Shown: positions 625 through 54,187, numbered from the stretch's first letter. The stretch is DNA of 64,000 nucleotides from a virus (IMGVR_UViG_3300033076_001341:32001-96000), one strand, 5' to 3'. Numbers and translations are program-made. The notes: a model not told the origin generated them from the sequence alone.

Positions 625-3600
625 ATGTCTTGCACTATAGATTCCAAGGTGCTGCGCACCGCGCTTGAAAAAGCTCTACGTACCAATCCTGAAAAATATC
701 GCAACCTTGAAAACTCGGTTCGCGACGTTATGCGATTGTCAAACCTGACTGATGAAGTCAAGGTAAAGGTTATAGCTGCATACAGCGAACTGTACAAACA
801 CCTATCTAGAAAGTCTACAGCTTTTGAATTAAACAACCTCGATACATTCCTGGACGCCCGCGTGGTTCCCATGATTGATGATACTTCTCTGAGCGCCTCG
901 CGTTTCACTGAAGCATTGTCTATGATCCAGGAGCAACTCGGAGTGACTCCCGCCACCGGTACTACGCAGAACATCCGCGCTAAAGAACTGGCGGTTGCGT
1001 TATCGGAAGCTATCGAGAGTCCACTGGTTGGACGTTACGCCCGCATCAAAGCAGTAGCGGACACCGTGGTTCAAGAGCGCAGTCTGCTGGACGCCGGGAT
1101 GAACGACTCCCAGGAACTCAACAGTGTAAAATTGCTGGAGAACGCCATTGACAAATTGCAGAACAGCGGTATGGACAAAAACACTGTCCGCAACCTGATG
1201 AAAGCATTGTCTCCCGCACTGGCGCAACTGCGTACTCCAAACAGCGAAAACGGATACATTGACCTTCGCTTAATCCCGGAACTTTCCTCCAATCGTTTTG
1301 AAGCGTACCTCTCTGACGGATCTATTGTCGATCTGCTTAAAGAAGGTGAGAGCTACATGATTCTCGATGAGAACCTGCAGAGCACCGGTGAAGTCTATGA
1401 CCTTAGTGCAAACCCTGCACCTAAAGCGGTCTTCCCTGTACCCAGCTCCTGGATTGCCAACGACGGCGCTACACTCCTGATCAACGGTGATGAGATCAAC
1501 ACCGGTCTGGTAATGATTGGTGCAGACCTGGAGGCATTCAGTAACGAAGTAATGAGTTCGACCAACAATCCGGTCAACACCGTTACCGTAGTTGCTAATA
1601 ACAGCAACGCTGCCCGCAATGCTGCCCGCTTTAATATCATTCGTCAGGCAGTAGCTCAATACCCTGCACTTGCTAACCGTACCATTGAAACCCGCGAAAG
1701 TGCTGCGCAGGTACGTGCCCTGCAGAGTGGTAAACCCGTGCTGACCCGTGCTCGCCTGAGCGATGGATTTTCCCTTCAATTGGTTTCTCCTTCCGGAAAG
1801 ATGGTCACTGTCCTGAACTACAACGATTACGTCGTGGTATTCCCAGACAACACTACCCGCAGACTGGATCTTGAAAACGAAGAGGATCTGAATCTCTTTG
1901 CGCAGCTGACCAATATCCGCTACACCAAGGGAGCAGCTAAGAACACCGTGCGTCCAACGACGATGGATGACTTGTACATGTTGCGTGATGGTGCCCGCCG
2001 CTATAAAGCGTTCGAAGCAGAAGTCAACGCATTGCTTGACAAAGGAGAGACAACCATTCCAACATCTGTATTCAGCAAGTACTTCGAGTTGCAAAACCAG
2101 GTGTACTACAATGACTTTACTAATTCATACGACACCATGGAGAAAGTCTATGGAGAGCGTTTTGATCAGTTCGTCAATAAGCACAACGGCGGATTCTCCG
2201 TAGACGTTGTAAACATCAACGATAAAACCAATCCTACCAAGCGTCAGTTGCCGGCAATCTTTGCACCGGTATACACGACCCGCAATGCTCGTCGCGGTGA
2301 TGCGTGGAGACCCATCGAACTATTGGGTCCCGATGAATACGTACTGCACGAGGGTAAGATTTACAAGTGGAAAGAATACGTAGAAAAAGTATTGATGAGC
2401 ACCATGGGTGACTCGATCTCTAAACTGAGTTTGCTTTCCGGTCACCGCTACGCCAGTTTGTTTCCTGTCAGCGGAACCAAGCATGCTGTGATTCCACTCA
2501 TCCGTAACAAGCAACCCAAAGTAACCGCCCAGTACGCTGATGTACTGCTGAACCTCGGACGCTTCGTTGCAAACTTTACCTCGACCACTCCTACTAAAAC
2601 ATACACCAACAACTTCAACAATGAAGTATTTGGTTTTGAAATTGTCAGCGGTGTACGTGCCGACTTCTTTACCAACATTGGTAAGAACGGTAAGCCGTAT
2701 CTGGCGGTGCAGTTCAATGCAAAAGACACGCATGCAGATGCTGCCTTCTTTAACGAGAATGCCAGCTTGCTGAACTTTGCCGTGAGCAGTGATCCACTGG
2801 ATAAGATCATGGAAACCGTTAAGGCGTTCTATGAATCCCAGGGTCTTGATTTTGTTTACGAGTCTGCAGCAGATGCCAAGCGTATCGCTGAAGAACTCAA
2901 TGGTCTGTTCACCAATGCTGCCGGCAAAGAAGCGGTGCAGAAACTGCAGGAAGAGATTGATAACATCTATCAAAAGTTTACCAAGGACGTACACACGAAG
3001 TTTGGTAAGAAGCTGGATAGTTTGCTCAACCATCCTGAAGCAGAAACCCGTGAGATGGCGCAGCAGATGATCGGCACCAAGGAGAAGTTCATGTTCCAGC
3101 TCTTTGAACAGGTTGAAAATAAACCCGTGCTCAAAGTTCAGAACAAGGAAACCACCTACCGTGACCTGAGTAGCTACTACACGTATAAGTCCAACATGTT
3201 TAGCCGCCTGTCACTTCGTTACAACATGGTTAGTCCATTTGAGCGCAGTGAGTTCAGCGATGCACTCGATGAGATGGAGACTCTTGTTGTACCACCGATT
3301 GACTTGTTTACTACTGAGCAAGACGTTGAAAATAATTTCACCATGTTCCCCGGTGCTACTCCAGAGAGTGGCAGCAGCAGACTGGATGACTTTGATATGT
3401 TTGATCCCTTTGAAGGAGGTGCAGCTTCGCTGGGTGATGCCTTGCAGCTTGCCGCTTTTGAACAGGGTGAATTCCAACGCCAGGTTGATTACATCCGCGA
3501 GCGTCTTCCCAAAGACATTGCTATTGATGATCTGGATAAGATTGTCCGTAACCTGGACGCTGAAGGTAACGTGCTTGGATACATCAAAGACAAGGTGATT

Positions 3601-6600
3601 TACCTAAATGAGAATCTTTCTCGTCCTGGAACTGCCTATCACGAAGCATTCCACGCCGTGTTCCGGTATTTGTTATCTCCTGAAGAGCGTGCAAACCTGT
3701 TGAGTCGCGAGTACGAGAGCATGGGTATTATTTCTGAGTCAGCAATTGCTGAATTCAGAAAGCAACGCCGTGGTCTTGCACACATGAGCAACACCGAAGT
3801 GATCGAGCTGATGGCGGAAGAACGTATGGCGGACAAGTTTCAGTCCTACGCGATTAAGAAAACGAAACCACAGACATGGTATGCCAAGTTGTTTAATCTC
3901 ATTCAACGTCTGATTGAGTTTTTCACGAAACACAAAAATGAAATCGAACAGACCTTTGACAGAATCCACAGCGGGTTCTACTCCAGTGCGTCTGCCAAAG
4001 AATACAGCGGTGTAGAAGGTGCTTACCAACTGATCAAGACCGTTCCGACCATGGGTCTGCTGGATGGTAAGATCAAAGGATTTACCGAAAGCATGAACGC
4101 TGCAGACATGATGGAGCTGCGTAACATGATGGTCTATGAAATGCTGCGCACCAAGAATGCTGCTGGCATGACAGCTGATCAGCGTTACGACGAAGTTGCC
4201 AACATGCTGCGCTCTTATTACAACATTGACAATTTCATCCGTCAGCGTCCCGATGCGGAGTCTTTCATCCGCAGTAAGTATGAAACTAAGTTGCGTGACT
4301 TCCGTTACGTTTTGGGTGGACTACAGAACGGTGAGAAGTATGCGGTTCTGAACCTCACAGGTGATCCTCGTTATGACAACAAGTTTATCGATGGTACCAA
4401 CGAAGGAGTGATTGCCCAGAATGCACAAGAGAGCTACCGTCAGATGAAGCAGATGGTCCTGGAGATTGTTGAGAATCTGAACACCACCGACACCATTGAA
4501 AACGCCTTGGCAACAGGTGCGATCAACGAGACGGACAGCGGTGATGTGGTGATGCAGGCAAAAGCTGACGTGGAAGAGACGGGCGCAAAAGATCCGGATA
4601 TCTCTCTTCTGGAAACAGGAACCTCTGATGGTGATCGTGAATTCAGAAAGATATTCCAGTTCCTGGTCTATGAGCAGGAAGACTTCGGAGTGGGAATCAC
4701 CATTCGCAGACCTGTTGACGCAGATAAGTTATTTGACTCCGTAAAGAAGATTACGGTAAATACTCCCAAGGCAGAGATTCTGCCTCAGATCCGTCAGCGC
4801 ATTGAAACGCTGGAGCAGGATCTGGAGCACATCAACCGACTCCTCGGTCGGATCAGCGGCTATCCTGCTGAACGGGATAACACTTACGAACTGGCGCAGA
4901 GTTTAAAGGCGATGATGAACATGCTCACTACCACCTGTGGTATTGAGAACAACATCCCGACCCGCAACGAAGCAATGTTCAACCAGTTCCACAGTGTCTT
5001 CTATGTCGCCTCTGGAGAGATCTCCCGGGTAGACATCAAGACCAAACGGGAGTTTGATGCTGCCGGTGTAGCGATTTCCAGTGAGATGCGCGTCGTAGAC
5101 GTAGCACAAACCCAGGATAATTTTGCTGCGCTTAATAAAGTTATTGACGGATACAACAACACCTACCGTTTACTACCGGAGACCAGCGACGGAGGATACT
5201 TCCGCGCCAGCAAGAAGCAGATTCAAGCGGATCTGAAAGAGACCATGGACATTATCCTGGAACGTGGATCAAAAGAGATCAGCACGTTCTACCTGGAAAA
5301 CGGAGAGTTCTCCGATGCCATGGTAAACAAACTTGCCGATGACCTGTATGTCATCTCCAGTTCTGCCGGTCTGGGTCTTCCCCGACATTTCTTCCATTTC
5401 TCCCTGGTTGCTATGATCCAGGCGAGCGGTTATCGTATTCCTGAAGGAAGCGAAGCGCGCTCGATCCTGATGGCAAATACTGACATCTACAAGGAGAAAG
5501 GATACATGACGCCCAGCATGCTGACAGCAATGCGCTACATGTTCAGCTACTCCGACAAAGTGCCGTTGTTTGAAAACACCGCTAACAAAACCCGCAAGTC
5601 AGTCGTTGCCAGCTTCCTGCCGGCAATGATGTACGTGACCCGCTATGATCAGTCAATTGGTCAGCCGGTAGTGATGAACACCACCGGTAATAAGATCTAC
5701 CGCTTTACGCTCTACTCGCCCAACATGCAGGTGGTGCAGGATCTTCAGCAGCTGGGTCTCAACGAGTTTGTCAAGGACGTCTATGGTCAGGACTTCGTAA
5801 GTTGGTTTAATGACAACCCTTACTTACAGGAAGGTGTACTCAGCGATTTGTTACAGGAGTACCTGAAGGTCGGATACCTCAATGGACTTTCTCAGCAGAT
5901 TGACGAAGGAGATAACATTAACACCGACGTCAGCAAAATTGACAAAAAAGGATACCATCTTTCTAACCTGGCGTTGTTTGCAGACCGCAAGTCTTACAGT
6001 CGTGCGGGACAGAAGCTGACAACGTTCAAGCGGATTACGTCTCAGAACGATGCGACCGGCACCGTGTTCCATGTAACGGGTCGTTACGAGGAATACATGA
6101 CCACCGTTGGAAACGCAAAGACAGAGTTCAACGGAAAGAAAGTCAGCATGATCAGTGCGCGTCTTGCCGGCTTGATTCAGCAGGAATACAACCGTATCCA
6201 AAAAGAATACCAGGAGCGGGACGTCAACAAGACCCGCTACAATGATTACAACGGTAAGTTACTTGCCGATGGAACCGTAGATACGACCAGTGCAAAGTTG
6301 CGTGCGTATAACTTCCATCACCTGGACAGTTTCTTCTTAAATGAGATTGGTGCAACAGACTCCAGCATTGTGGATGAGAATGTAGCTGCCAGGGTGTACA
6401 TGCGCGAGCAGTTGATTGCTGCAGCTAAAGAAGGAAAGTCTTTTGCAGATACGTTGAGTAGTCCTGCACTGGCACCGCTGTTTGAACAACTGGACTTGTA
6501 CGCACAAGATGAATTTGAGTTCTTCCTGGAGAACCTGGAGAATGAAAAGATCATTGAAAAAGTTGGAGCTGATTACAGCACTGCTTTCTTTGACACTTCC

Positions 6601-9600
6601 TACAAACTTAATGGGGAGAACAAAACGGGTGCGCTGGGTAATTCACTGAAGACGCACCTGAACGATTACTTTTTCAATGACTGGGTGAACCGATTGCTTG
6701 TTAACCAACTCTTTGATGGTGACAAGGCAGTAGGTATCAAGAGCGCCGTGGATTACTACAAGCGTTTGAAGTCTCAGGCTGCTGCCGGCAAAAACGCCGA
6801 GAGCGCCAGCCGGATCATCAAGCACGGTACCAGCACCTATCGCCATGTGGTGATTACCACTCCTGGAAATAAAGAAATTCCTGTGTACTTCGATCCCAGT
6901 GACCTGACTAAACCTCAGCAGCACTCCAGCGAAGGCATGGAAAACTATAAAGCATTTGAGATCATGGATGGTCACGTCTACCAGACACTGAACCACCGCA
7001 TGAAGTTCCTCAGTGCTGAAGGCAAGCTTGATGCCCGCAGTGAAGAGATCATTCGCTCTTTGCGATACAAGCGTGCAAGCTTTGAGGAGATTGAATACCT
7101 GGAGAGTCGTGGTATCCAGCTGAACCCGCAAAAGACGGTAACAGCGCACCCGATTCACTACCTCAAGATGAGTGAGCACTACATCAACCGTCTGACCGTG
7201 AGCTACTACCGCGCCGCTGACAAGCGTGCTGCCAGGGACCGTGTCGCTGAAATGTACAAGCTGCTCGATCTGTACGAAGGTCAATTGGATTTAGGCATCG
7301 AGGTGAACGAAAACGGTGAGTCTATCGAAAGACTTTACCGCGATACAGTGACCAAGATCCACCAGGAGTTTGCACCGATCAACGGCAGACAGATGCTGCA
7401 CAGCATGCTCAACAACATGGAGTATCATCGCCTGGGACAACTGAGTGATAACAGTGCTTCCAAGCGGGGAACTATTATTCCTGCCAGCGTCACCATAGAG
7501 CAATTAGAATCAGGTGATACTTACTGGGATCTCGATAATCACGTAGCGACCATTCCGATGCGATATGCGTACAACCAGGTAGCAACTGAAATGCATCACC
7601 ATGATGTAACGGATTCTATTCAGCCAAAGTTGCTTATTGATACGGACATTGACCTGAAGGACCCCAATGTTCCGGAAGACCTTAAGAAGCTGGTGCGTAC
7701 GTACCGTACCCTGCTGAACAACATGTCAGTGAACTCCCGCAAGAAGTTCGAGCGCGTAGTTAAAAAAGGCGGAAAGATTGACACAGCAAACTTCTACAAG
7801 ATGATCCAGGAGTCCCTGCAGAAACAGGGTGCTCCCCAGCACATGCTCAAGATGTGGGACGTTGTAGACGGAGAACCGGTGCACAGTGCAAACTTGCCAG
7901 GTATTACCGAGGCGTTGAAATACTATGTATTCAGCAGCGCCAATGCAAGCTTGTTCCAACCAAAAGCACCTGGTTACAAGTTCTACCACGGTTCCTCTTT
8001 CGGATACAAGATCATCGTTGATGAAAACGATGTGCCGGTACCGGACGAAGAGATCCGCAAGAACCCTGAGAAATATAATAATTACGAAACCCGGTATCCA
8101 TCGTTCCGCAAGACTATCAATGCCGAAGGTGTTGAAGAGTATTACGTAGAGGTATTGATTCCAAGACCAACCAGCACCAACCCCAAGAAGTTGCGTGTGC
8201 TGGAGAAGTCCCTGGAGGAGTTCTTTGGTACCCGTATCCCTACGGAGGATAAACGCTCCATGGTGCGGGTGAAAGTGGCTGGTTATATTGACGCTACCTA
8301 TATCAATACGATTGTCGTTCCAGAACAGATTCACTATTTGTCCGGATCAGATAAAGATATCGATGCGTTGTACGTACGTATGCTCGGCACCTATGACAAC
8401 GTCCTGGGTGAATTGAACATCTACGGGGATTACTCCGAGTACGAGGATCGCTACGGCATGGATGCAAAGACTGCACGCTTTGTGGAGTACCTGCATTACA
8501 TGATGAACGATCCATTCTTCGGACCGCTGGTGAGCAAGGAACTCCGTCGTATGAAAGAAGACGCCGGATACAAAGTAGAGAACCTCAAAGAAAGCGCTGC
8601 CATGTTTGGTCCTAAAGTGCAGGAGTTCTTTACCCGCTCTATGGACGACATCATGAGCGCTATGCAGAGTCGTTTCAGGGACCTCAAAGAATCTAAACAG
8701 ATCCAGACAACCGGCAAGAAGTTTACTTCTTTTGAAGACCTGCGTGACATCGTGGATGCACAAGGCGACGAGAGCAGTGTAGAGCTTCAGCGTCAGCTTC
8801 GTCTCCTGGAAAAGATGGCGGCAGTTGTCAACGTATTGCAAGGTACGGACATGCCGGTGACTGCAGAGGAGCTGATGAAGTATGAGAAAGCAAACGGCTC
8901 TCCTGTGATTCCGATTATCCAGAACGAGATTACCTCGGTGATGAACAAGATCCTGGGTCACAATTATGTCTTTGATAATCTGTACAGCAAGGAATTCTCC
9001 AACGCAGATATTTATAAAAACGCCGTAGACAAACTGGGTCGCGATGAAAAGGACACCATTGGTCAGAGCAATTTTGCAACGATCACGTCGGTATCGAACG
9101 TGCGTGACTCCAACAAGAGCGCCAAGCGTGGTATCGAGATCTTTGCAGCGTTCAACAAAGGATTGAGTATTGCCGTAAAGCACGGTCTGAAGCTGCAGGA
9201 ACCAATCTGGAACATCAACGGTAAAACGTACAAGAGCTTCAGTATCGAGGATGGTGATGACCCAAGCAGACAGCGTGCACATGCATTGATCGGAAACTCC
9301 CTGGGTATGAGCGCCGATGCGGCGAAGAACCCTTATCCTGCCGTACTGAGTCTGAATCAGTACAACATGGCGGTGACTGCTACGATGCTGAGTCTGGGTA
9401 TTGATCCTTATCTGAGCATCTACATCAACCTGATGCCTTCAGTCAAAAATGCCGTGAGTGTGTACGAAGCAGAAGCAGAAGGATCTGTGCGACGCAGTTA
9501 TAAAAACGGTACAAGCTTATCGACGCACCTCTTCAATACGCTGACCTATAAGTTAAATGAACTCTCTGTTGGCGATGCTGCACAGCAAGCGTTTGCCAAG

Positions 9601-12408
9601 GACTTTACCCTGAGCGACTACACGTTCAATTTTGATGTGGAGAATGTTGATCCAAACATCGTGAACAGCGATAACCCAACGGTTGATTCCATGGGTGTGG
9701 AAGTGGTGAACACGAAGGGTCTGGAGTTGACGGCAGAGATGAAAGACGTGGTGATGCTGGCAATGTTTATCGAACAGCAAAAGCAGGCAGAAGCGATTCG
9801 CTACGAACTGGGTCCGTTGACAGATGCACAGAAATCACTGTCACCGGATTTCAACACGATTGATCGTTTGAAGAACGTATACAGCAAAGACCGCGACGAA
9901 AGTGTGTTTGAAGGATACAAAAACATCTTTAGTGAGAGTCCTGTATACAACGACCTGGGTAAGAGTATTGAACTCTTTGATGAGATGACCTCGGAAGTGT
10001 TCCTGGAAAGAACACCTCTGGTAAAAGAATTGACCAAACAAATCAATGCGGCAATCTATGCAGCAAACCCGCAGCAGATCTCTTCGCATATAAAAAGCTA
10101 CCTGGCGCTGAACGTACTGAAAAATACGATCACCACCGCCATGCAAGATCCGGAGCTGGAGAAAAACTCTCCGGTAGTACATGCCCGCTACAGCAGCTTC
10201 CTGAGCATGCTCAACGCGGACTACTGGTATAACAACAACATGCCCAACACAATCAACCGTTTGAAGCGTGAGTTCCGTGGCAATGCATTTCTGGATGCTA
10301 TTGATGTGTTTAATGGAAAGAACGGACTAAAGCTTGTGCGCAGTGTAAGCAAAGCAAAGGTGAGTCCTGAACGGGAGATCATGATCATGAACGGACTGGA
10401 TCAGTTGTTGACCAACTCCGATGCAACGGTTCGTGAAGCAGCTTACCAGATCTTTTATTATTCTATCGTCAAAGACGGAATGTCGGCAGCTCCTTACAGC
10501 TTGCGCCGATTCCTGAACCCGGATAACTTCCGCGAGGTAAGTAACCAGCTTAAGAAAGTAGAGAAAGCATTTGACACACTTAACCAGGCGTACCAAGAAA
10601 ATGCTGGTATGGATTTCCGCAAAGCATTCGAGTCAGAATTCAAATCCTTGTTGGGTGAGAATTCTAGTCTGGACTTTGTGATTGAAGACGTGATGGAGAA
10701 GATCATCAGTATTTATGATCCGACGGCTGATGAGAGTAAAGTTAAGGTGCTGAACTATACCAATGAGCGTGGTAAGTTTACCGGCTATGGTGTCAAAGCA
10801 ATGCAAGAAGCAATTGAAAGCATGCGTCCTTCCATGGGTGCAGAGATCTTTGCAGAAGCGGAAGCAAATGCACACGAGAGCCGCAACCTCAAGCGTAAGT
10901 TCAAACTAAACAAGAAGCGTGCAGAAGATACAGGTAAACCTGTTTCCAACAACGACCTCTTCCTTCCGGATAGCAACGACGAAGTAGTCCTGAACATGGC
11001 AAACGCTTCCAAGTTAAACAACGAAATGTTTGACAAGATTGCGATGCACAACAGCATCTATCCTCGTCGCGTCAACGCCGAAACCCTGACCAAAGAGTAC
11101 AGCTTCCCGCTGTATGTAACCAATACGTACGGAGACCTGATGGTCCTAAACGAAGTGGACGGTCAGAAGCTGGGTAGCAAACTCTTTGATAAGATTGAAG
11201 AGCAGATGAGTAACGATGCATCGCAGATAAATGGTAATCCGTTTGTGGGAACCAAAGCGGTGTACAAGATCGTGAAACGCCAGGGTGATGCAAACATCAA
11301 CCCCATTGCATTCTCTACCAAGGAGGCAGTGAAGTTAAACGACTATGCAACCGGTGCGTTAACACCTTCTATCACCACCATTGATGAGACAGGCGGAACC
11401 TACAAAGGCATTACGGTACTGAGTGCAAAAGATATGGTGCGCCAGGGCACTGGTGAACCCGGAGCAGCAAAGTTCCGTCGTGCTGACAACACTATTGTGA
11501 TTGACCGCGATACGCTTTATGACAAGTACTACGAGAAAGCGTGGACGAGTCCCTTGAAGCAGCGTGATGGAAGTTTTGCTACGGCATTCCCGGAGAACAC
11601 GTTCAACAACTACAACGACTGGGAAACTTTCGTTCTGGAGCACGAGCGTCAGCACATGGTGCTTGGTCCAAAGCAATTGAATGAAGAGTACGGTGCGTAT
11701 GAGGATCGGGTGAATCGTGCAGCACTTGCTGCATTATTTCCCGGAATGGATCTGACATTTCTGGATGCAGCAACACAAGCTCCTGCAGACCAGAGTGTAA
11801 ATGAACCCATCCTGGTTTCTACTCCAGAGCAACCCCTTGAGATCTATGTCGATGGATCGCACATCAAAGGAACCGGTATGCTGGGATACGGCGCTGCTGT
11901 AAAACACAACGGCAGAACGCTCAGCATGAGCGGAACAGAGGAGAGCAAAGCGTTCAAGTCGTTCCAGGCTAAGTTCCCGTCTGCGAAGTTCTCTAATCCA
12001 ACAATGGAGATGCTTGGACTGGTGATGACGCTCAACACGTTTAAGGACACTGCCGAGCACCTGGTGATCAAGCAGGATTACAAGGGTGTTGTAAACTACG
12101 GTGCACTTTGGAATCGCTCAGAAGGATCGTTGCAGCGTGAACCTAAACCATGGAACGCGAAGGAAACCTACATCCAATACCTGGTCGACAAAGCGGTGGA
12201 GATGATCGAGCGCATCGAGAGCAACGGTGGTACCGTTAAACTTCAATGGGTGAAGGGTCACAGCAAAGACGTGATGAACGACGCTGCAGACGCTGCTGCC
12301 AAAGACAGAAGTGTATTTAACCAGTTCGGATTGTTATTCGAACAGAATTCAGTAGAGAAGGTCATTCAGTCAAAGACTGAGGAGTCCAAAGAATGTAACA
12401 ACAACTAA
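625..12408 (+). CDS. Giant crAss-like virion RNA polymerase polyprotein with two zincin-like motifs and a C-terminal RNase H domain
   Basis: 3927 aa; RIPTEDKRSM (nt ~8233) then GSDKDID (DxDxD, nt 8350-8364) as in crAss-type two-barrel virion RNAPs; YHEAFH...EERMADKF (nt 3640); HERQH (nt 11641); RNase HI motifs YVDGS, NPTMEML, QDYKGV, WVKGHS, NDAAD (nt ~11839-12303). Confidence 0.85.
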   Translation: MSCTIDSKVLRTALEKALRTNPEKYRNLENSVRDVMRLSNLTDEVKVKVIAAYSELYKHLSRKSTAFELNNLDTFLDARVVPMIDDTSLSASRFTEALSMIQEQLGVTPATGTTQNIRAKELAVALSEAIESPLVGRYARIKAVADTVVQERSLLDAGMNDSQELNSVKLLENAIDKLQNSGMDKNTVRNLMKALSPALAQLRTPNSENGYIDLRLIPELSSNRFEAYLSDGSIVDLLKEGESYMILDENLQSTGEVYDLSANPAPKAVFPVPSSWIANDGATLLINGDEINTGLVMIGADLEAFSNEVMSSTNNPVNTVTVVANNSNAARNAARFNIIRQAVAQYPALANRTIETRESAAQVRALQSGKPVLTRARLSDGFSLQLVSPSGKMVTVLNYNDYVVVFPDNTTRRLDLENEEDLNLFAQLTNIRYTKGAAKNTVRPTTMDDLYMLRDGARRYKAFEAEVNALLDKGETTIPTSVFSKYFELQNQVYYNDFTNSYDTMEKVYGERFDQFVNKHNGGFSVDVVNINDKTNPTKRQLPAIFAPVYTTRNARRGDAWRPIELLGPDEYVLHEGKIYKWKEYVEKVLMSTMGDSISKLSLLSGHRYASLFPVSGTKHAVIPLIRNKQPKVTAQYADVLLNLGRFVANFTSTTPTKTYTNNFNNEVFGFEIVSGVRADFFTNIGKNGKPYLAVQFNAKDTHADAAFFNENASLLNFAVSSDPLDKIMETVKAFYESQGLDFVYESAADAKRIAEELNGLFTNAAGKEAVQKLQEEIDNIYQKFTKDVHTKFGKKLDSLLNHPEAETREMAQQMIGTKEKFMFQLFEQVENKPVLKVQNKETTYRDLSSYYTYKSNMFSRLSLRYNMVSPFERSEFSDALDEMETLVVPPIDLFTTEQDVENNFTMFPGATPESGSSRLDDFDMFDPFEGGAASLGDALQLAAFEQGEFQRQVDYIRERLPKDIAIDDLDKIVRNLDAEGNVLGYIKDKVIYLNENLSRPGTAYHEAFHAVFRYLLSPEERANLLSREYESMGIISESAIAEFRKQRRGLAHMSNTEVIELMAEERMADKFQSYAIKKTKPQTWYAKLFNLIQRLIEFFTKHKNEIEQTFDRIHSGFYSSASAKEYSGVEGAYQLIKTVPTMGLLDGKIKGFTESMNAADMMELRNMMVYEMLRTKNAAGMTADQRYDEVANMLRSYYNIDNFIRQRPDAESFIRSKYETKLRDFRYVLGGLQNGEKYAVLNLTGDPRYDNKFIDGTNEGVIAQNAQESYRQMKQMVLEIVENLNTTDTIENALATGAINETDSGDVVMQAKADVEETGAKDPDISLLETGTSDGDREFRKIFQFLVYEQEDFGVGITIRRPVDADKLFDSVKKITVNTPKAEILPQIRQRIETLEQDLEHINRLLGRISGYPAERDNTYELAQSLKAMMNMLTTTCGIENNIPTRNEAMFNQFHSVFYVASGEISRVDIKTKREFDAAGVAISSEMRVVDVAQTQDNFAALNKVIDGYNNTYRLLPETSDGGYFRASKKQIQADLKETMDIILERGSKEISTFYLENGEFSDAMVNKLADDLYVISSSAGLGLPRHFFHFSLVAMIQASGYRIPEGSEARSILMANTDIYKEKGYMTPSMLTAMRYMFSYSDKVPLFENTANKTRKSVVASFLPAMMYVTRYDQSIGQPVVMNTTGNKIYRFTLYSPNMQVVQDLQQLGLNEFVKDVYGQDFVSWFNDNPYLQEGVLSDLLQEYLKVGYLNGLSQQIDEGDNINTDVSKIDKKGYHLSNLALFADRKSYSRAGQKLTTFKRITSQNDATGTVFHVTGRYEEYMTTVGNAKTEFNGKKVSMISARLAGLIQQEYNRIQKEYQERDVNKTRYNDYNGKLLADGTVDTTSAKLRAYNFHHLDSFFLNEIGATDSSIVDENVAARVYMREQLIAAAKEGKSFADTLSSPALAPLFEQLDLYAQDEFEFFLENLENEKIIEKVGADYSTAFFDTSYKLNGENKTGALGNSLKTHLNDYFFNDWVNRLLVNQLFDGDKAVGIKSAVDYYKRLKSQAAAGKNAESASRIIKHGTSTYRHVVITTPGNKEIPVYFDPSDLTKPQQHSSEGMENYKAFEIMDGHVYQTLNHRMKFLSAEGKLDARSEEIIRSLRYKRASFEEIEYLESRGIQLNPQKTVTAHPIHYLKMSEHYINRLTVSYYRAADKRAARDRVAEMYKLLDLYEGQLDLGIEVNENGESIERLYRDTVTKIHQEFAPINGRQMLHSMLNNMEYHRLGQLSDNSASKRGTIIPASVTIEQLESGDTYWDLDNHVATIPMRYAYNQVATEMHHHDVTDSIQPKLLIDTDIDLKDPNVPEDLKKLVRTYRTLLNNMSVNSRKKFERVVKKGGKIDTANFYKMIQESLQKQGAPQHMLKMWDVVDGEPVHSANLPGITEALKYYVFSSANASLFQPKAPGYKFYHGSSFGYKIIVDENDVPVPDEEIRKNPEKYNNYETRYPSFRKTINAEGVEEYYVEVLIPRPTSTNPKKLRVLEKSLEEFFGTRIPTEDKRSMVRVKVAGYIDATYINTIVVPEQIHYLSGSDKDIDALYVRMLGTYDNVLGELNIYGDYSEYEDRYGMDAKTARFVEYLHYMMNDPFFGPLVSKELRRMKEDAGYKVENLKESAAMFGPKVQEFFTRSMDDIMSAMQSRFRDLKESKQIQTTGKKFTSFEDLRDIVDAQGDESSVELQRQLRLLEKMAAVVNVLQGTDMPVTAEELMKYEKANGSPVIPIIQNEITSVMNKILGHNYVFDNLYSKEFSNADIYKNAVDKLGRDEKDTIGQSNFATITSVSNVRDSNKSAKRGIEIFAAFNKGLSIAVKHGLKLQEPIWNINGKTYKSFSIEDGDDPSRQRAHALIGNSLGMSADAAKNPYPAVLSLNQYNMAVTATMLSLGIDPYLSIYINLMPSVKNAVSVYEAEAEGSVRRSYKNGTSLSTHLFNTLTYKLNELSVGDAAQQAFAKDFTLSDYTFNFDVENVDPNIVNSDNPTVDSMGVEVVNTKGLELTAEMKDVVMLAMFIEQQKQAEAIRYELGPLTDAQKSLSPDFNTIDRLKNVYSKDRDESVFEGYKNIFSESPVYNDLGKSIELFDEMTSEVFLERTPLVKELTKQINAAIYAANPQQISSHIKSYLALNVLKNTITTAMQDPELEKNSPVVHARYSSFLSMLNADYWYNNNMPNTINRLKREFRGNAFLDAIDVFNGKNGLKLVRSVSKAKVSPEREIMIMNGLDQLLTNSDATVREAAYQIFYYSIVKDGMSAAPYSLRRFLNPDNFREVSNQLKKVEKAFDTLNQAYQENAGMDFRKAFESEFKSLLGENSSLDFVIEDVMEKIISIYDPTADESKVKVLNYTNERGKFTGYGVKAMQEAIESMRPSMGAEIFAEAEANAHESRNLKRKFKLNKKRAEDTGKPVSNNDLFLPDSNDEVVLNMANASKLNNEMFDKIAMHNSIYPRRVNAETLTKEYSFPLYVTNTYGDLMVLNEVDGQKLGSKLFDKIEEQMSNDASQINGNPFVGTKAVYKIVKRQGDANINPIAFSTKEAVKLNDYATGALTPSITTIDETGGTYKGITVLSAKDMVRQGTGEPGAAKFRRADNTIVIDRDTLYDKYYEKAWTSPLKQRDGSFATAFPENTFNNYNDWETFVLEHERQHMVLGPKQLNEEYGAYEDRVNRAALAALFPGMDLTFLDAATQAPADQSVNEPILVSTPEQPLEIYVDGSHIKGTGMLGYGAAVKHNGRTLSMSGTEESKAFKSFQAKFPSAKFSNPTMEMLGLVMTLNTFKDTAEHLVIKQDYKGVVNYGALWNRSEGSLQREPKPWNAKETYIQYLVDKAVEMIERIESNGGTVKLQWVKGHSKDVMNDAADAAAKDRSVFNQFGLLFEQNSVEKVIQSKTEESKECNNN

Positions 12409-51454: not shown

Positions 51455-51802
51455 TTAGTAGATGGTGATCACGTCACCGTCGATGGAAAAGTTTGCAGTA
51501 GATTTGGCGATCTGGATTGTTACTCCTTTGACAACCAGTATAACAAATTTGCTGTCATCAGGTTTTTCGACAGACGACGGTGTCATAGGTACATTATTAA
51601 CGGCTAGTGCATTAACACCAACCGGACGTTTACCGCGCAAGTTGGTGAGAACTATTCCTTCGTCTTTCATTTTCTTTTTAAAGTTGTGAACGCTTGAGAT
51701 TGCAATGCCGAAATACTTGCTGATGTCTTCAGGTGTTACACCTTGCAGCACCATTCCTTGCAACTTTTCCTTTTCTTCAGGAGTCAACCGTTTTTGATTC
51801 AT
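51455..51802 (-). CDS. HTH DNA-binding protein (candidate regulator/excisionase)
   Basis: LTPEEK...GVTPEDISKYFGIAISSVHNF HTH; lies just downstream of the integrase. Confidence 0.7.
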   Translation of the reverse strand: MNQKRLTPEEKEKLQGMVLQGVTPEDISKYFGIAISSVHNFKKKMKDEGIVLTNLRGKRPVGVNALAVNNVPMTPSSVEKPDDSKFVILVVKGVTIQIAKSTANFSIDGDVITIY

Positions 51803-51954: not shown

Positions 51955-53079
51955 CTAAATCTGAGGTAAATCTTGCTCGTTGATATTTAATAGAACTCCT
52001 AAAGACCTTAAATATACAATAGTTATACTAACATCACCATGTCCCATAAGTTGAGACAACTTTGGAAGGTCCTGAGTTCTTCTAAATAGCAATACGGCAG
52101 CCGTATGTCGTATACTGTACAGGGTGTGGTCTTTAGTTACTACTTTGTCCTTCAACAGCTTACGCTTTACTTTTTTCCATATCGTTGAAAAGTATTCTTC
52201 GCTTTGATATGGTTTTTTCTTTTTGGTGAATATGTTATAATCCGGTGGAAGCTCGTCAATCTGACGTTTAATTAACTCTTCCCGGACAAATCCAGGGACT
52301 GGTACAACGCGAAGTTGTCTGTTTTTAACTTCGTCCCCATCCATTGAAATCATGGTTAACTGCTCGTTAAAGTGATCTCGATTAAGGTTTCTGATCTCTT
52401 TATGTGGTCTCAAAAAGCTTCCGTACATCAATAAAGCGCACAGATAAAGATTGCTGTTTTCTGCTTTGATGTACTCTAATACTTGTTTGAATTGTTTTTC
52501 TGTAAACGCTCGGTTACGTTTAGGACTTTTCTTTTTTACACTGGTTAATGTTACGGGATTAACTCCGATCATTTTGTTCTCGACAAAAAGTGTAAATATC
52601 CCGCTAAGTCGATTGCGAACAATCATGTAATAAGCTGCTGATGATGTAATTGTATTTAAGTACGTTTGAATATCATCTTTAGTAATCAATGCTGTTCGAA
52701 GATGTTTGAGGTTCTTTATGTCCAGGTATTTGCGAAACTTTCTTGCCGCGTATTTAAAATCTTTCTTGTGGCGTTCCGAAAAACTTGCTGGATAAAGGCG
52801 CTCTAGATTCTCCTCCTGGAGATCCGTAGTCAATAAACTACGGGGATGGTCAACACTATCAACAGGTTCCCAGCCGGCAAGCAACAGCTTATGGAGATGG
52901 TATTGCAACCTCTCCAATTCCTGCTGTCGATGTTTAAGAGTTGTACACGTTATCGGTGAACAATCCAATCCGACCTGGGACCCGTCATAGTAGCGTTTAC
53001 GTTTTTTGTTGTAATAGAAAAAAACAAACCCGCGCTGGGTGAGTTCCTGAGGATTGTACACCTCCGGTTTTGTAAACAT
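51955..53079 (-). CDS. int: Tyrosine recombinase / integrase
   Basis: FLRPHKEI (R), VKN (K), LYSIRH, LMGH, TIVYL (Y); AT-rich; adjacent to a tRNA-derived att core. Confidence 0.9.
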   Translation of the reverse strand: MFTKPEVYNPQELTQRGFVFFYYNKKRKRYYDGSQVGLDCSPITCTTLKHRQQELERLQYHLHKLLLAGWEPVDSVDHPRSLLTTDLQEENLERLYPASFSERHKKDFKYAARKFRKYLDIKNLKHLRTALITKDDIQTYLNTITSSAAYYMIVRNRLSGIFTLFVENKMIGVNPVTLTSVKKKSPKRNRAFTEKQFKQVLEYIKAENSNLYLCALLMYGSFLRPHKEIRNLNRDHFNEQLTMISMDGDEVKNRQLRVVPVPGFVREELIKRQIDELPPDYNIFTKKKKPYQSEEYFSTIWKKVKRKLLKDKVVTKDHTLYSIRHTAAVLLFRRTQDLPKLSQLMGHGDVSITIVYLRSLGVLLNINEQDLPQI

Positions 53080-53164
53080 TTGCAGTAAATTTTGTCTCTT
53101 TGAAAAAATAGTAATCAAGCAAAACGCTTGACAGCAGAGAGTTTGAAGGCAGTATCATGGGAAA

Positions 53165-53207
53165 CTCATAACCCGAAGGTCCCAGGTTCGATCCCTGGCT
53201 TCGCAAC
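53165..53207 (+). mobile_element. attP core: 3' half of initiator tRNA-Met(CAT)
   Basis: CTCATAA anticodon loop, CCCGA, variable loop, CCAGG-TTCGATC-CCTGG T-arm, CTTCGCA-A acceptor 3' strand; no matching 5' half upstream. Confidence 0.8.
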
Positions 53208-53210
53208 AAA

Positions 53211-53246
53211 ACAAGACCCACTACTACAGTGGGTTTTGTCGTTTTT
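53211..53246 (+). terminator. Terminator hairpin after the tRNA fragment
   Basis: ACAAGACCCACT-ACTAC-AGTGGGTTTTGT then a T-rich run. Confidence 0.7.
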
Positions 53247-53277
53247 ATGAGGTTCTGATTTTTGCTTCATTTTACTG

Positions 53278-53296
53278 TCTCTGCTGTCTCTGCTGT
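53278..53296. repeat. Tandem TCTCTGCTGT repeat with an inverted copy at 53131-53140 (candidate integrase arm sites)
   Basis: Exact 10-mer twice (overlapping by 1 nt) downstream of the core; reverse complement ACAGCAGAGA upstream. Confidence 0.55.
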
Positions 53297-54187
53297 TTAG
53301 TACTCCGAATTTAGTAAATCTACCTCTTTGGTACGGTAACTGTCGGAGGTCGTGTAATAAGTAAATTCATTGAAGGTCAACTCCACGTCTTTTGCACGGT
53401 CTTCGATGGAAAATCCTTGATCATCATAGCAATGATCCGCCTCGTATTTGTCCATCAAGTCTCTAAAAAATTCAGCTAACGCATTCTCCAGTTCCTCGAT
53501 GCATTTCGCTGCTTCAGCGCTTAACTCGTCGTTGTGGCGCCTCCAATCTCCCCTGACACGTAGTGAAATGTTTACCTCCGGAAAGCTCCCATCGTAACCA
53601 TCCTGAATGCTTACATATACCTCGTTGATGTGCTCGGGTATGAGTGCAATAGGGATTGTAAAGGTGCAGGGTTCAATGCCCACGTGATGGTAATCGTACT
53701 GGGAGTAATTGTCCGTTCCTCTGAACCCTACAAATCCGTCTTCAATAATGAAGTCGGCGGTTCCAGAAGCGGAGAATTCACCTGCCCAGCTTCCGTAATC
53801 CAGGTTGTCATACATTTCGTTGATGACAAATTGGTGGATGCGGTCATAGAGCGTTTGTTTGTCACCGTCCCAAATTTCGTCTATTTGCTTGTTGTTGATG
53901 TTTAACCAGACAGATCCACTGTCTCCTCCGCCACTCCATTCCAGCTGAATCCTGTTGCCGGCAAGGTGTAGGGAGCTGTAATAATCCATGGCAAGTTGAC
54001 TGGTAATCACGACGTCATCGGTTTCCTTGTAAGGAAACTTGATTTCACCAGGTTCTATGTTAATGGATGGTTCTTTTGTCAACGGTGTTCCCATCATTTT
54101 GGCATGCAGAGCTTCACCCGCTGCTGCGTATTTTGAAAATACTTCACTAGGGGTAAAAGGATGTGTTGTTTTTTCATCTGGTTCCAT
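53297..54187 (-). CDS. DUF6878-like acidic protein
   Basis: WSGGGDSG and YGSWAGEFSASG motifs; paired with a DUF6915-like gene. Confidence 0.5.
   Translation of the reverse strand: MEPDEKTTHPFTPSEVFSKYAAAGEALHAKMMGTPLTKEPSINIEPGEIKFPYKETDDVVITSQLAMDYYSSLHLAGNRIQLEWSGGGDSGSVWLNINNKQIDEIWDGDKQTLYDRIHQFVINEMYDNLDYGSWAGEFSASGTADFIIEDGFVGFRGTDNYSQYDYHHVGIEPCTFTIPIALIPEHINEVYVSIQDGYDGSFPEVNISLRVRGDWRRHNDELSAEAAKCIEELENALAEFFRDLMDKYEADHCYDDQGFSIEDRAKDVELTFNEFTYYTTSDSYRTKEVDLLNSEY

Follow-up and report, generated by a model that had tools for sequence, protein, structure and literature searches.

A probable site-specific integration module in a crAss-like phage, with an attP core identical to the 3' part of the initiator tRNA-Met gene of Chitinophagaceae

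Phages of the crAss-like group are usually described as unable to integrate, and their mode of persistence is an open topic. The viral DNA described here raises the question of whether a member of this group can enter the chromosome of its host: a gene for a tyrosine integrase lies next to a short piece of DNA that looks like the 3' part of a tRNA gene. Integrative lysogeny has been reported for Crassvirales at very low rates (PMC10983915), epsilon crAss-like phages possess repressor and antirepressor genes and no integrase was found in them (PMC11054128), and cultured or gut crAss-like phages persist via a carrier state, host phase variation or a phage-plasmid state (PMC8375218, PMC10983915, PMC11054128). 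The original prediction, which was made from the DNA, had called a temperate lifestyle uncommon in the group, in line with the description of integration as rare in two of these sources (PMC10983915, PMC11054128). It has also been remarked that integrases occur in a subset of crAss-like phages (PMC9980608), yet the word is absent from the main text of the paper cited for it (PMC7886860). A literature search yielded no crAss-like phage paper that describes an attP of the kind presented here or that deals with Chitinophagaceae. Here we present the locus, its relatives in viral and bacterial genomes and the arguments for considering it, with good though not complete confidence, a working site-specific integration module, the attP of which would recombine with the initiator tRNA-Met gene of Chitinophagaceae. 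The phage can very probably insert into the host chromosome, and it may in this way become a prophage.

The window, i.e. the whole stretch of 64,000 nucleotides that was analysed, comprises the bases 32001-96000 of a 127,939-bp record from IMG/VR, the completeness of which is 100% according to CheckV. The two ends of the record (1-1361 and 126527-127917) show a DNA identity of 81%, and the proteins encoded by the next genes are 88% identical; the assembly seems to have closed on itself around a genome of approximately 126.5 kb by way of a second strain variant. A part of the capsid gene recurs exactly in the first 77 bases of the record. No bacterial flanks are present in the record, and phage genes are found on both sides of the module. 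Because the ends overlap and bacterial flanks are absent, the site is regarded as an attP within a free genome. A prophage junction, against which the original prediction had already decided, is ruled out by the overlapping contig ends, the phage gene order on both sides and the number of core copies, which is one in the entire record.

Regarding the affiliation of the phage, the major capsid protein (MCP) matched Pfam family PF23898 (Crass_capsid) with 122 bits (cut-off 27), and the portal protein, the large terminase subunit (TerL) and the MCP matched PHROG head-and-packaging profiles with E values from 1e-34 to 1e-96. A tblastn search with the portal protein yielded 149 GenBank records, mostly from crAss-like phages or phages of Bacteroidota hosts; the best match was Leptolyngbya phage Lbo-JY46 (33% identity), and many gut crAss-like phages were hit at 22-27% identity. 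A giant protein of 3927 aa (window positions 625-12408, plus strand) contains a stretch (residues 2258-2701) that weakly matches proteins of crAss-like phages annotated as the catalytic subunit of an RNA polymerase (RNAP; 23-27% identity, best E value 3e-12); the search with this stretch returned 66 records, those listed being crAss-like. The stretch includes two DxDxD motifs, the C-terminus of the protein is an RNase H domain (residues 3732-3918), and no match to a solved RNAP structure was obtained by sequence. Taken at the level of sequence comparison, the phage is a crAss-like phage (Crassvirales in the broad sense), and the original assignment to the crAss-like group is borne out by the Crass_capsid MCP, the portal protein and TerL; the giant protein with its RNAP-like stretch is a candidate for the virion RNAP named in the prediction.

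The features of the putative module are listed in Table 1.

Table 1. Features of the putative integration module, with positions counted from the first base of the window
Feature	Position	Strand	Remarks
Protein of 115 aa with N-terminal three-helix HTH	51455..51802	minus	directly downstream of the integrase gene
Tyrosine integrase, 374 aa	51955..53079	minus	ATG at 53079; Pfam PF00589 and phrog_1
Whole attP region (P arm, core, P' arm)	53080..53296	plus	from the integrase start to the stop of the next gene
Candidate arm-type site P, TGTCTC	53093..53098	plus	72 nt before the core; adjoins the integrase start
attP core	53165..53207	plus	corresponds to tRNA-fMet positions 32 to 73 and one further base, 43 nt
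Anticodon-loop heptamer CTCATAA	53165..53171	plus	left edge of the identity block; probable region of strand exchange
Terminator-like hairpin	53211..53249	plus	12-bp stem followed by a T run; directly past the tRNA 3' end
Candidate arm-type sites P'1 and P'2, tandem CTGTCTCTG x2	53275..53292	plus	9-bp spacing; 110 and 119 nt past the core start

The attP core is composed of the anticodon loop, the 3' strand of the anticodon stem, the variable loop, the T arm, the 3' acceptor strand, the discriminator A and a C. It is identical to complete tRNA-Met genes of Chitinophagaceae in 43 of 43 positions, which is far beyond chance. The identity between phage and tRNA opens with the first base of the anticodon loop (tRNA position 32) and ends one base beyond the discriminator; the phage bases 5' of the block are unrelated to the tRNA. 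In all seven distinct phage sequences the identity starts at the same base, with the preceding 5 nt being different in each of them. Between the core start (53165) and the ATG of the integrase gene, which are on opposite strands, there are 85 nt. A complete tRNA at the site is ruled out by ARAGORN, which found no tRNA anywhere in the window, and by Rfam, which yielded no tRNA match in 52900-53450. The original prediction, i.e. a tyrosine integrase about 85 nt from a partial tRNA gene that runs from CTCATAA through the acceptor 3' strand and is followed by a terminator, thus corresponds to the annotated features.

Possible hosts were sought among the genomes of 185,579 species (one genome per species) by exact matches to the last 39 nt of the core. 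This search yielded 31 matches in 30 loci, all of them from Chitinophagaceae, a family of bacteria from soil and water (genera Niabella, Flavihumibacter, Paraflavitalea, Pseudoflavitalea, Niastella, Ferruginibacter, Flavisolibacter and Pseudobacter), and each of the 31 is located within a complete tRNA-Met(CAT) gene of 73-75 nt. The tRNA-fMet genes of Bacteroidota had been proposed as a guide to the host, and the exact matches among them single out this one family. Initiator tRNAs of bacteria are marked by C1 opposite A72, by A11:U24 and by GGG/CCC in the anticodon stem. Since all three marks are present in most of the host genes, the tRNA from which the core derives is considered an initiator tRNA, as had been read from CCC and a C1:A72 mismatch; a few tRNA copies of Niabella start with T instead of C1.

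The motif TAnnTTTG is a promoter motif of Bacteroidota. In the host loci L011-L040 such a box is located directly 5' of the tRNA-fMet genes (e.g., TATATTTG). In the phage, TAnnTTTG boxes were not found upstream of the integrase gene and are not enriched in the window (32, compared with 40 +/- 7.5 in shuffled sequences), and no sigma-70-like promoter was detected in 52800-53500.

The integrase matched Pfam family PF00589 (Phage_integrase) over residues 192-359 with 50.9 bits (cut-off 27.1), the PHROG integrase profile phrog_1 with an E value of 9e-32 and XerA (4A8E) with an E value of 3.6e-9. The catalytic set R224, K252, R324, H347 and Y356 is aligned with that of XerA (4A8E) and invariant in 14-15 relatives, all of which are full length. 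Pfam recognises the catalytic domain alone, and the preceding 190 residues are conserved within the family. Tyr321 occupies the position three before R324 in the HxxR box, where His is usual, and is invariant across the integrase family. Because members of the family border inserted bacterial elements, this Tyr is taken as a family trait rather than a defect, and judging from the alignment it seems compatible with activity. No relative of the integrase is detectable in GenBank phages at an E value of 1e-5. Close relatives (47-71% identity) were obtained from about a dozen contigs, several of which measure 96-128 kb.

The attP region has the same spacing in seven distinct phage sequences. The tandem pair to the right of the core is found at +109 to +111 and +118 to +120 in eight of eight distinct phages, in five motif variants, and the single P site at -71/-72 in seven of the eight; its hexamer changes jointly with the pair. 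The motif reads TGTCTC in the phage of the window and in a relative with 71% integrase identity, and TGACAC, TGGCGC, TGGCGA or ACCTCTG in the others. All three copies share one orientation and always change together. Fixed positions combined with a co-varying hexamer are the behaviour expected of arm-type sites, to which the integrase would bind; the argument is comparative because 8-mers of this kind are not rare within the window alone. The exception regarding the P site is IMGVR_UViG_3300043399_000927, which has no -72 site and a shorter left arm, the integrase start being just 33 nt from the core. The same contig carries a third copy of the arm motif at +214.

An inverted repeat (53130-53140 versus 53278-53288) was also considered as a site and was rejected, as it is absent in the relatives, which show no reverse-strand hexamers. 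Within the left arm (window 53120-53145), an AAACGC-like and a GAGTTT-like block, approximately 43 and 22 nt before the core, are kept in seven phages; they could be sites for accessory factors or elements of the integrase promoter. The hairpin that follows the core can also be read as a minus-strand terminator for the gene at 53297-54187 and is maintained in the relatives by compensatory changes (CCCAC/GTGGG, CCCGC/GCGGG and GTCGC/GCGAC).

When seven distinct sites are aligned, no long block other than the core is invariant, the flanks having diverged. In the relatives with 62-71% integrase identity the core is unchanged and both flanks differ. Relatives at approximately 50% integrase identity have a core with a different T stem (GGGAG/CTCCC versus CCAGG/CCTGG), in which every change is paired. 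Exact matches to the variant 43-mer were present in 9 of the 401 Chitinophagales genomes sampled; six of the loci were obtained and scanned, and each proved to be a complete tRNA-Met gene. Among viral contigs the variant 43-mer occurs in the known relative only. As the variant core equals real host genes, the site appears to follow the alleles of the hosts, which implies exchange with host chromosomes.

The relatives that were fetched share the gene order DUF6915, a gene for 251-297 aa, the site, the integrase gene, an HTH gene for 113-116 aa, small genes, helicase, uracil-DNA glycosylase (UDG) and DnaB. The group to which these phages belong is far larger: the portal protein has more than 6,000 related clusters, many of them on contigs of 118-127 kb. 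Regarding the 80 IMG/VR loci found via the DUF6915 neighbour, only one, the known relative with 71% integrase identity, has an integrase gene and the core within 6 kb. In the nearest relatives without an integrase, DUF6915 is directly followed by the genes that in the present phage lie beyond the HTH gene. Because they are missing at 79 of the 80 loci while the flanking genes are adjacent, the site, the integrase gene and the HTH gene are interpreted as a cassette of a small subclade. The 115-aa HTH protein was seen among the relatives solely together with the integrase; its HTH matches are weak and under the Pfam cut-offs, and in the structural model the helices of residues 8-47 have a pLDDT of approximately 80, whereas the remainder is poor.

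The 296-aa protein encoded on the other side of the site (53297-54187, minus strand) has conserved GGGDSG and LDYGSWAGEF motifs and a confidently predicted fold (pLDDT 80), with no match among solved structures except for a weak EsaG-like one. Its gene was left out of the module because homologues occur in some of the relatives without an integrase. A related viral contig, IMGVR_UViG_3300030098_004828, measures 245,646 bp, roughly double the length that is usual for genomes of this group, and could be a concatemer or a misassembly.

Distant relatives of the integrase (34-36% identity), which have the same invariant residues, reside in bacterial chromosomes. In Segetibacter koreensis an integrase with 34-35% identity is located at the end of a 36.8-kb element, beside a partial copy of tRNA-Met(CAT), in front of which there are two arm-like sites (-80/-68). 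The complete tRNA-Met(CAT) gene is found 36.8 kb away on the same strand, and after it, inside the element, these sites recur in two copies. This element represents a real attL/attR pair with the architecture that is predicted for the phage. The half of the Segetibacter layout that is next to the integrase recurs, with partial tRNA copies, on three other bacterial contigs. Two still more distant members of the family (L055 and L059) lie beside 3' parts of tRNAs with the loops CTGAAAA (Phe-like) and CTGTTAA (Asn-like), and in L055 (G089:C21) tandem arm-like repeats adjoin the integrase start. It seems that the family can switch from one tRNA gene to another as its target, with the layout of the site preserved.

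The Chitinophagaceae elements (Segetibacter, L008, L045 and L056) thus belong to the same family as the phage integrase, with all catalytic positions in common, and resemble the phage in the succession of integrase start, arm-like sites and tRNA 3' part as well as in the paired sites inside the other end. They differ in being located in chromosomes, in using a non-initiator tRNA with the anticodon CAT, in a repeat that extends back to the D loop and in two P-arm sites, whereas the phage has a free 127-kb genome, an initiator tRNA as target and one P-arm site.

These features are consistent with the following course of integration. In a host from the Chitinophagaceae, the integrase would recombine attP with the gene for the initiator tRNA-Met within the 43 bp that phage and host DNA share, a block that begins with the anticodon loop and includes one base beyond the discriminator. 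To judge from the left edge of the identity block, strand exchange would most likely occur there, in the anticodon loop; the T loop, in which the block contains a perfect inverted repeat, may be an alternative position. Insertion would leave the host with a whole tRNA-fMet gene, composed of its own 5' part and the 3' part from the phage and ended by the phage terminator, and a partial tRNA copy would remain beside the integrase gene at the other end of the prophage. As in an attP of the lambda type, the N-terminal part of the integrase would bind to arm-type sites, namely the -72 hexamer and the tandem repeats at +110/+119. The HTH protein encoded downstream of the integrase gene is a candidate directionality factor for excision, or a candidate regulator.

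A module that is able to recombine would not necessarily yield stable lysogens. Integration might be rare, transient or abortive if a maintenance repressor is missing, and the phage might live lytically or in a carrier state like cultured crAss-like phages. Inserted copies were accordingly looked for at several levels. The attL-type pattern (tRNA 5' side, core and phage terminator) had no match in the species genomes, and there were no attR-like remnants, every exact core copy in these genomes being a whole tRNA. Neither an integrase of the family nor an arm pair was present near the host tRNA-fMet gene at the 36 loci examined; a tandem repeat in L033 was rejected as an arm pair, as it lies beside an aldo/keto-reductase-like gene. 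A total of 401 Chitinophagaceae genomes yielded a single distant match to the portal protein (26% identity, in a fragmentary genome) and a single match to the integrase (36%). In metagenome contigs, the pattern of core and arm pair had no match and the integrase profile distant matches only, results that carry little weight because the collections contain almost none of these phages. The core had no match in viral contigs, where near relatives were possibly hidden from the search. No repressor family was recognised among 17 neighbouring proteins, and no excisionase was recognised either, a weak HTH being all that was seen; all 12 contigs with an integrase of the phage type show the attP arrangement, i.e. 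the free form. Such findings, like the very low rates of integrative lysogeny in Crassvirales (PMC10983915), are what a phage without stable lysogens would show. However, core, arm sites, spacing and terminator are constrained across integrases that have diverged to 47-71% identity, and the core has been swapped for another real host allele, and neither observation would be easily understood if the module were not regularly used in host chromosomes. Profile searches, moreover, often fail to recognise the repressors of phages as divergent as these. We therefore regard recombination without stable lysogens as improbable.

The distribution of the cassette would also suit a separate small integrative element, consisting of attP, integrase gene and HTH gene, that merely rides in the phage genome: it is missing from most related loci, its flanking genes are directly adjacent in the nearest relatives without an integrase, and the nearest relatives of the integrase outside the clade are located in bacterial islands. 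Such an element would be expected to be bordered by attL/attR-like repeats, but the core is present in a single copy; the cassette occupies the same place in all carriers and has diverged along with the neighbouring phage genes. As an integrase and a single attP in a circularising genome would cause the whole genome to integrate, the idea of a passenger element is given very little credence. The tRNA-like piece could, finally, be a functional or leftover tRNA fragment and the recombinase could serve otherwise, e.g. in resolving genome multimers. Yet the piece breaks off precisely at the anticodon loop, without a 5' half, is identical to host genes instead of being merely tRNA-shaped, has a fixed distance from the integrase start and lies between co-varying repeats, and relatives of the integrase border a real inserted element at a tRNA gene; this explanation is hardly credible. 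A site-specific integration module hence remains the preferred interpretation of the locus.

That heterobivalent tyrosine integrases insert DNA into the 3' part of tRNA genes is textbook knowledge; for the integrase of mycobacteriophage L5, the common core measures 43 bp and is located at the 3' end of a tRNA-Gly gene. Williams is said to have distinguished, in 2002, sublocation classes of integration into tRNA genes that include a crossover in the anticodon loop. In the present phage the block runs from position 32 to the 3' end of the tRNA and adjoins the integrase gene, as in that class. With the systems of the lambda Int and L5 Int type the phage shares a tyrosine recombinase gene adjoining an attP of approximately 220 bp, a core that restores the 3' part of a tRNA gene and, as in a lambda-type attP, the position of the host-identical core between repeated non-core sites, of which one is close to the integrase gene and two are arranged in tandem on the opposite side. 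The sequence relation to the lambda and L5 integrases, in contrast, is confined to the catalytic domain, and the phage has Tyr for the His of the second box. Arm binding, bending factors and excisionase are features of lambda-type systems, the counterparts of which in the phage are candidates at most.

With crAss001, crAss002, Carjivirus communis and the epsilon crAss-like phages the phage has the Crass_capsid MCP, the portal protein, TerL and a part of the giant protein in common, whereas those phages are without integration genes (PMC8375218, PMC10983915, PMC11054128). The genome of approximately 127 kb encodes a portal protein that is 22-33% identical to those of GenBank crAss-like phages. 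The mechanism of integration as such is classical; distinctive are the host family, the initiator tRNA as target, the arm sites as defined by clear comparison among relatives and the distribution in the manner of a cassette.

A more far-reaching view would be that a subclade of this environmental group of crAss-like phages, which is very abundant and has genomes of about 125 kb, took a lysogeny cassette from integrative elements of Chitinophagaceae and truly lysogenises its hosts at the initiator tRNA gene. We put this forward as a tentative and rather doubtful proposal. The attP is defined to the base and candidate arm sites have been named, and attB is an exact 43-bp stretch that is present in cultured strains of Niabella, Flavihumibacter, Paraflavitalea and Flavisolibacter, which permits a prediction of the host of an uncultured phage and a simple recombination assay. 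As a cassette that is special to a minor branch within a very large group of phages, the module is useful for studies of changes in lifestyle. If integration is true, a phage that relies on an injected virion RNA polymerase would have to start from the chromosome without it, and a second entry into the early genes, driven by the polymerase of the host, would be implied.
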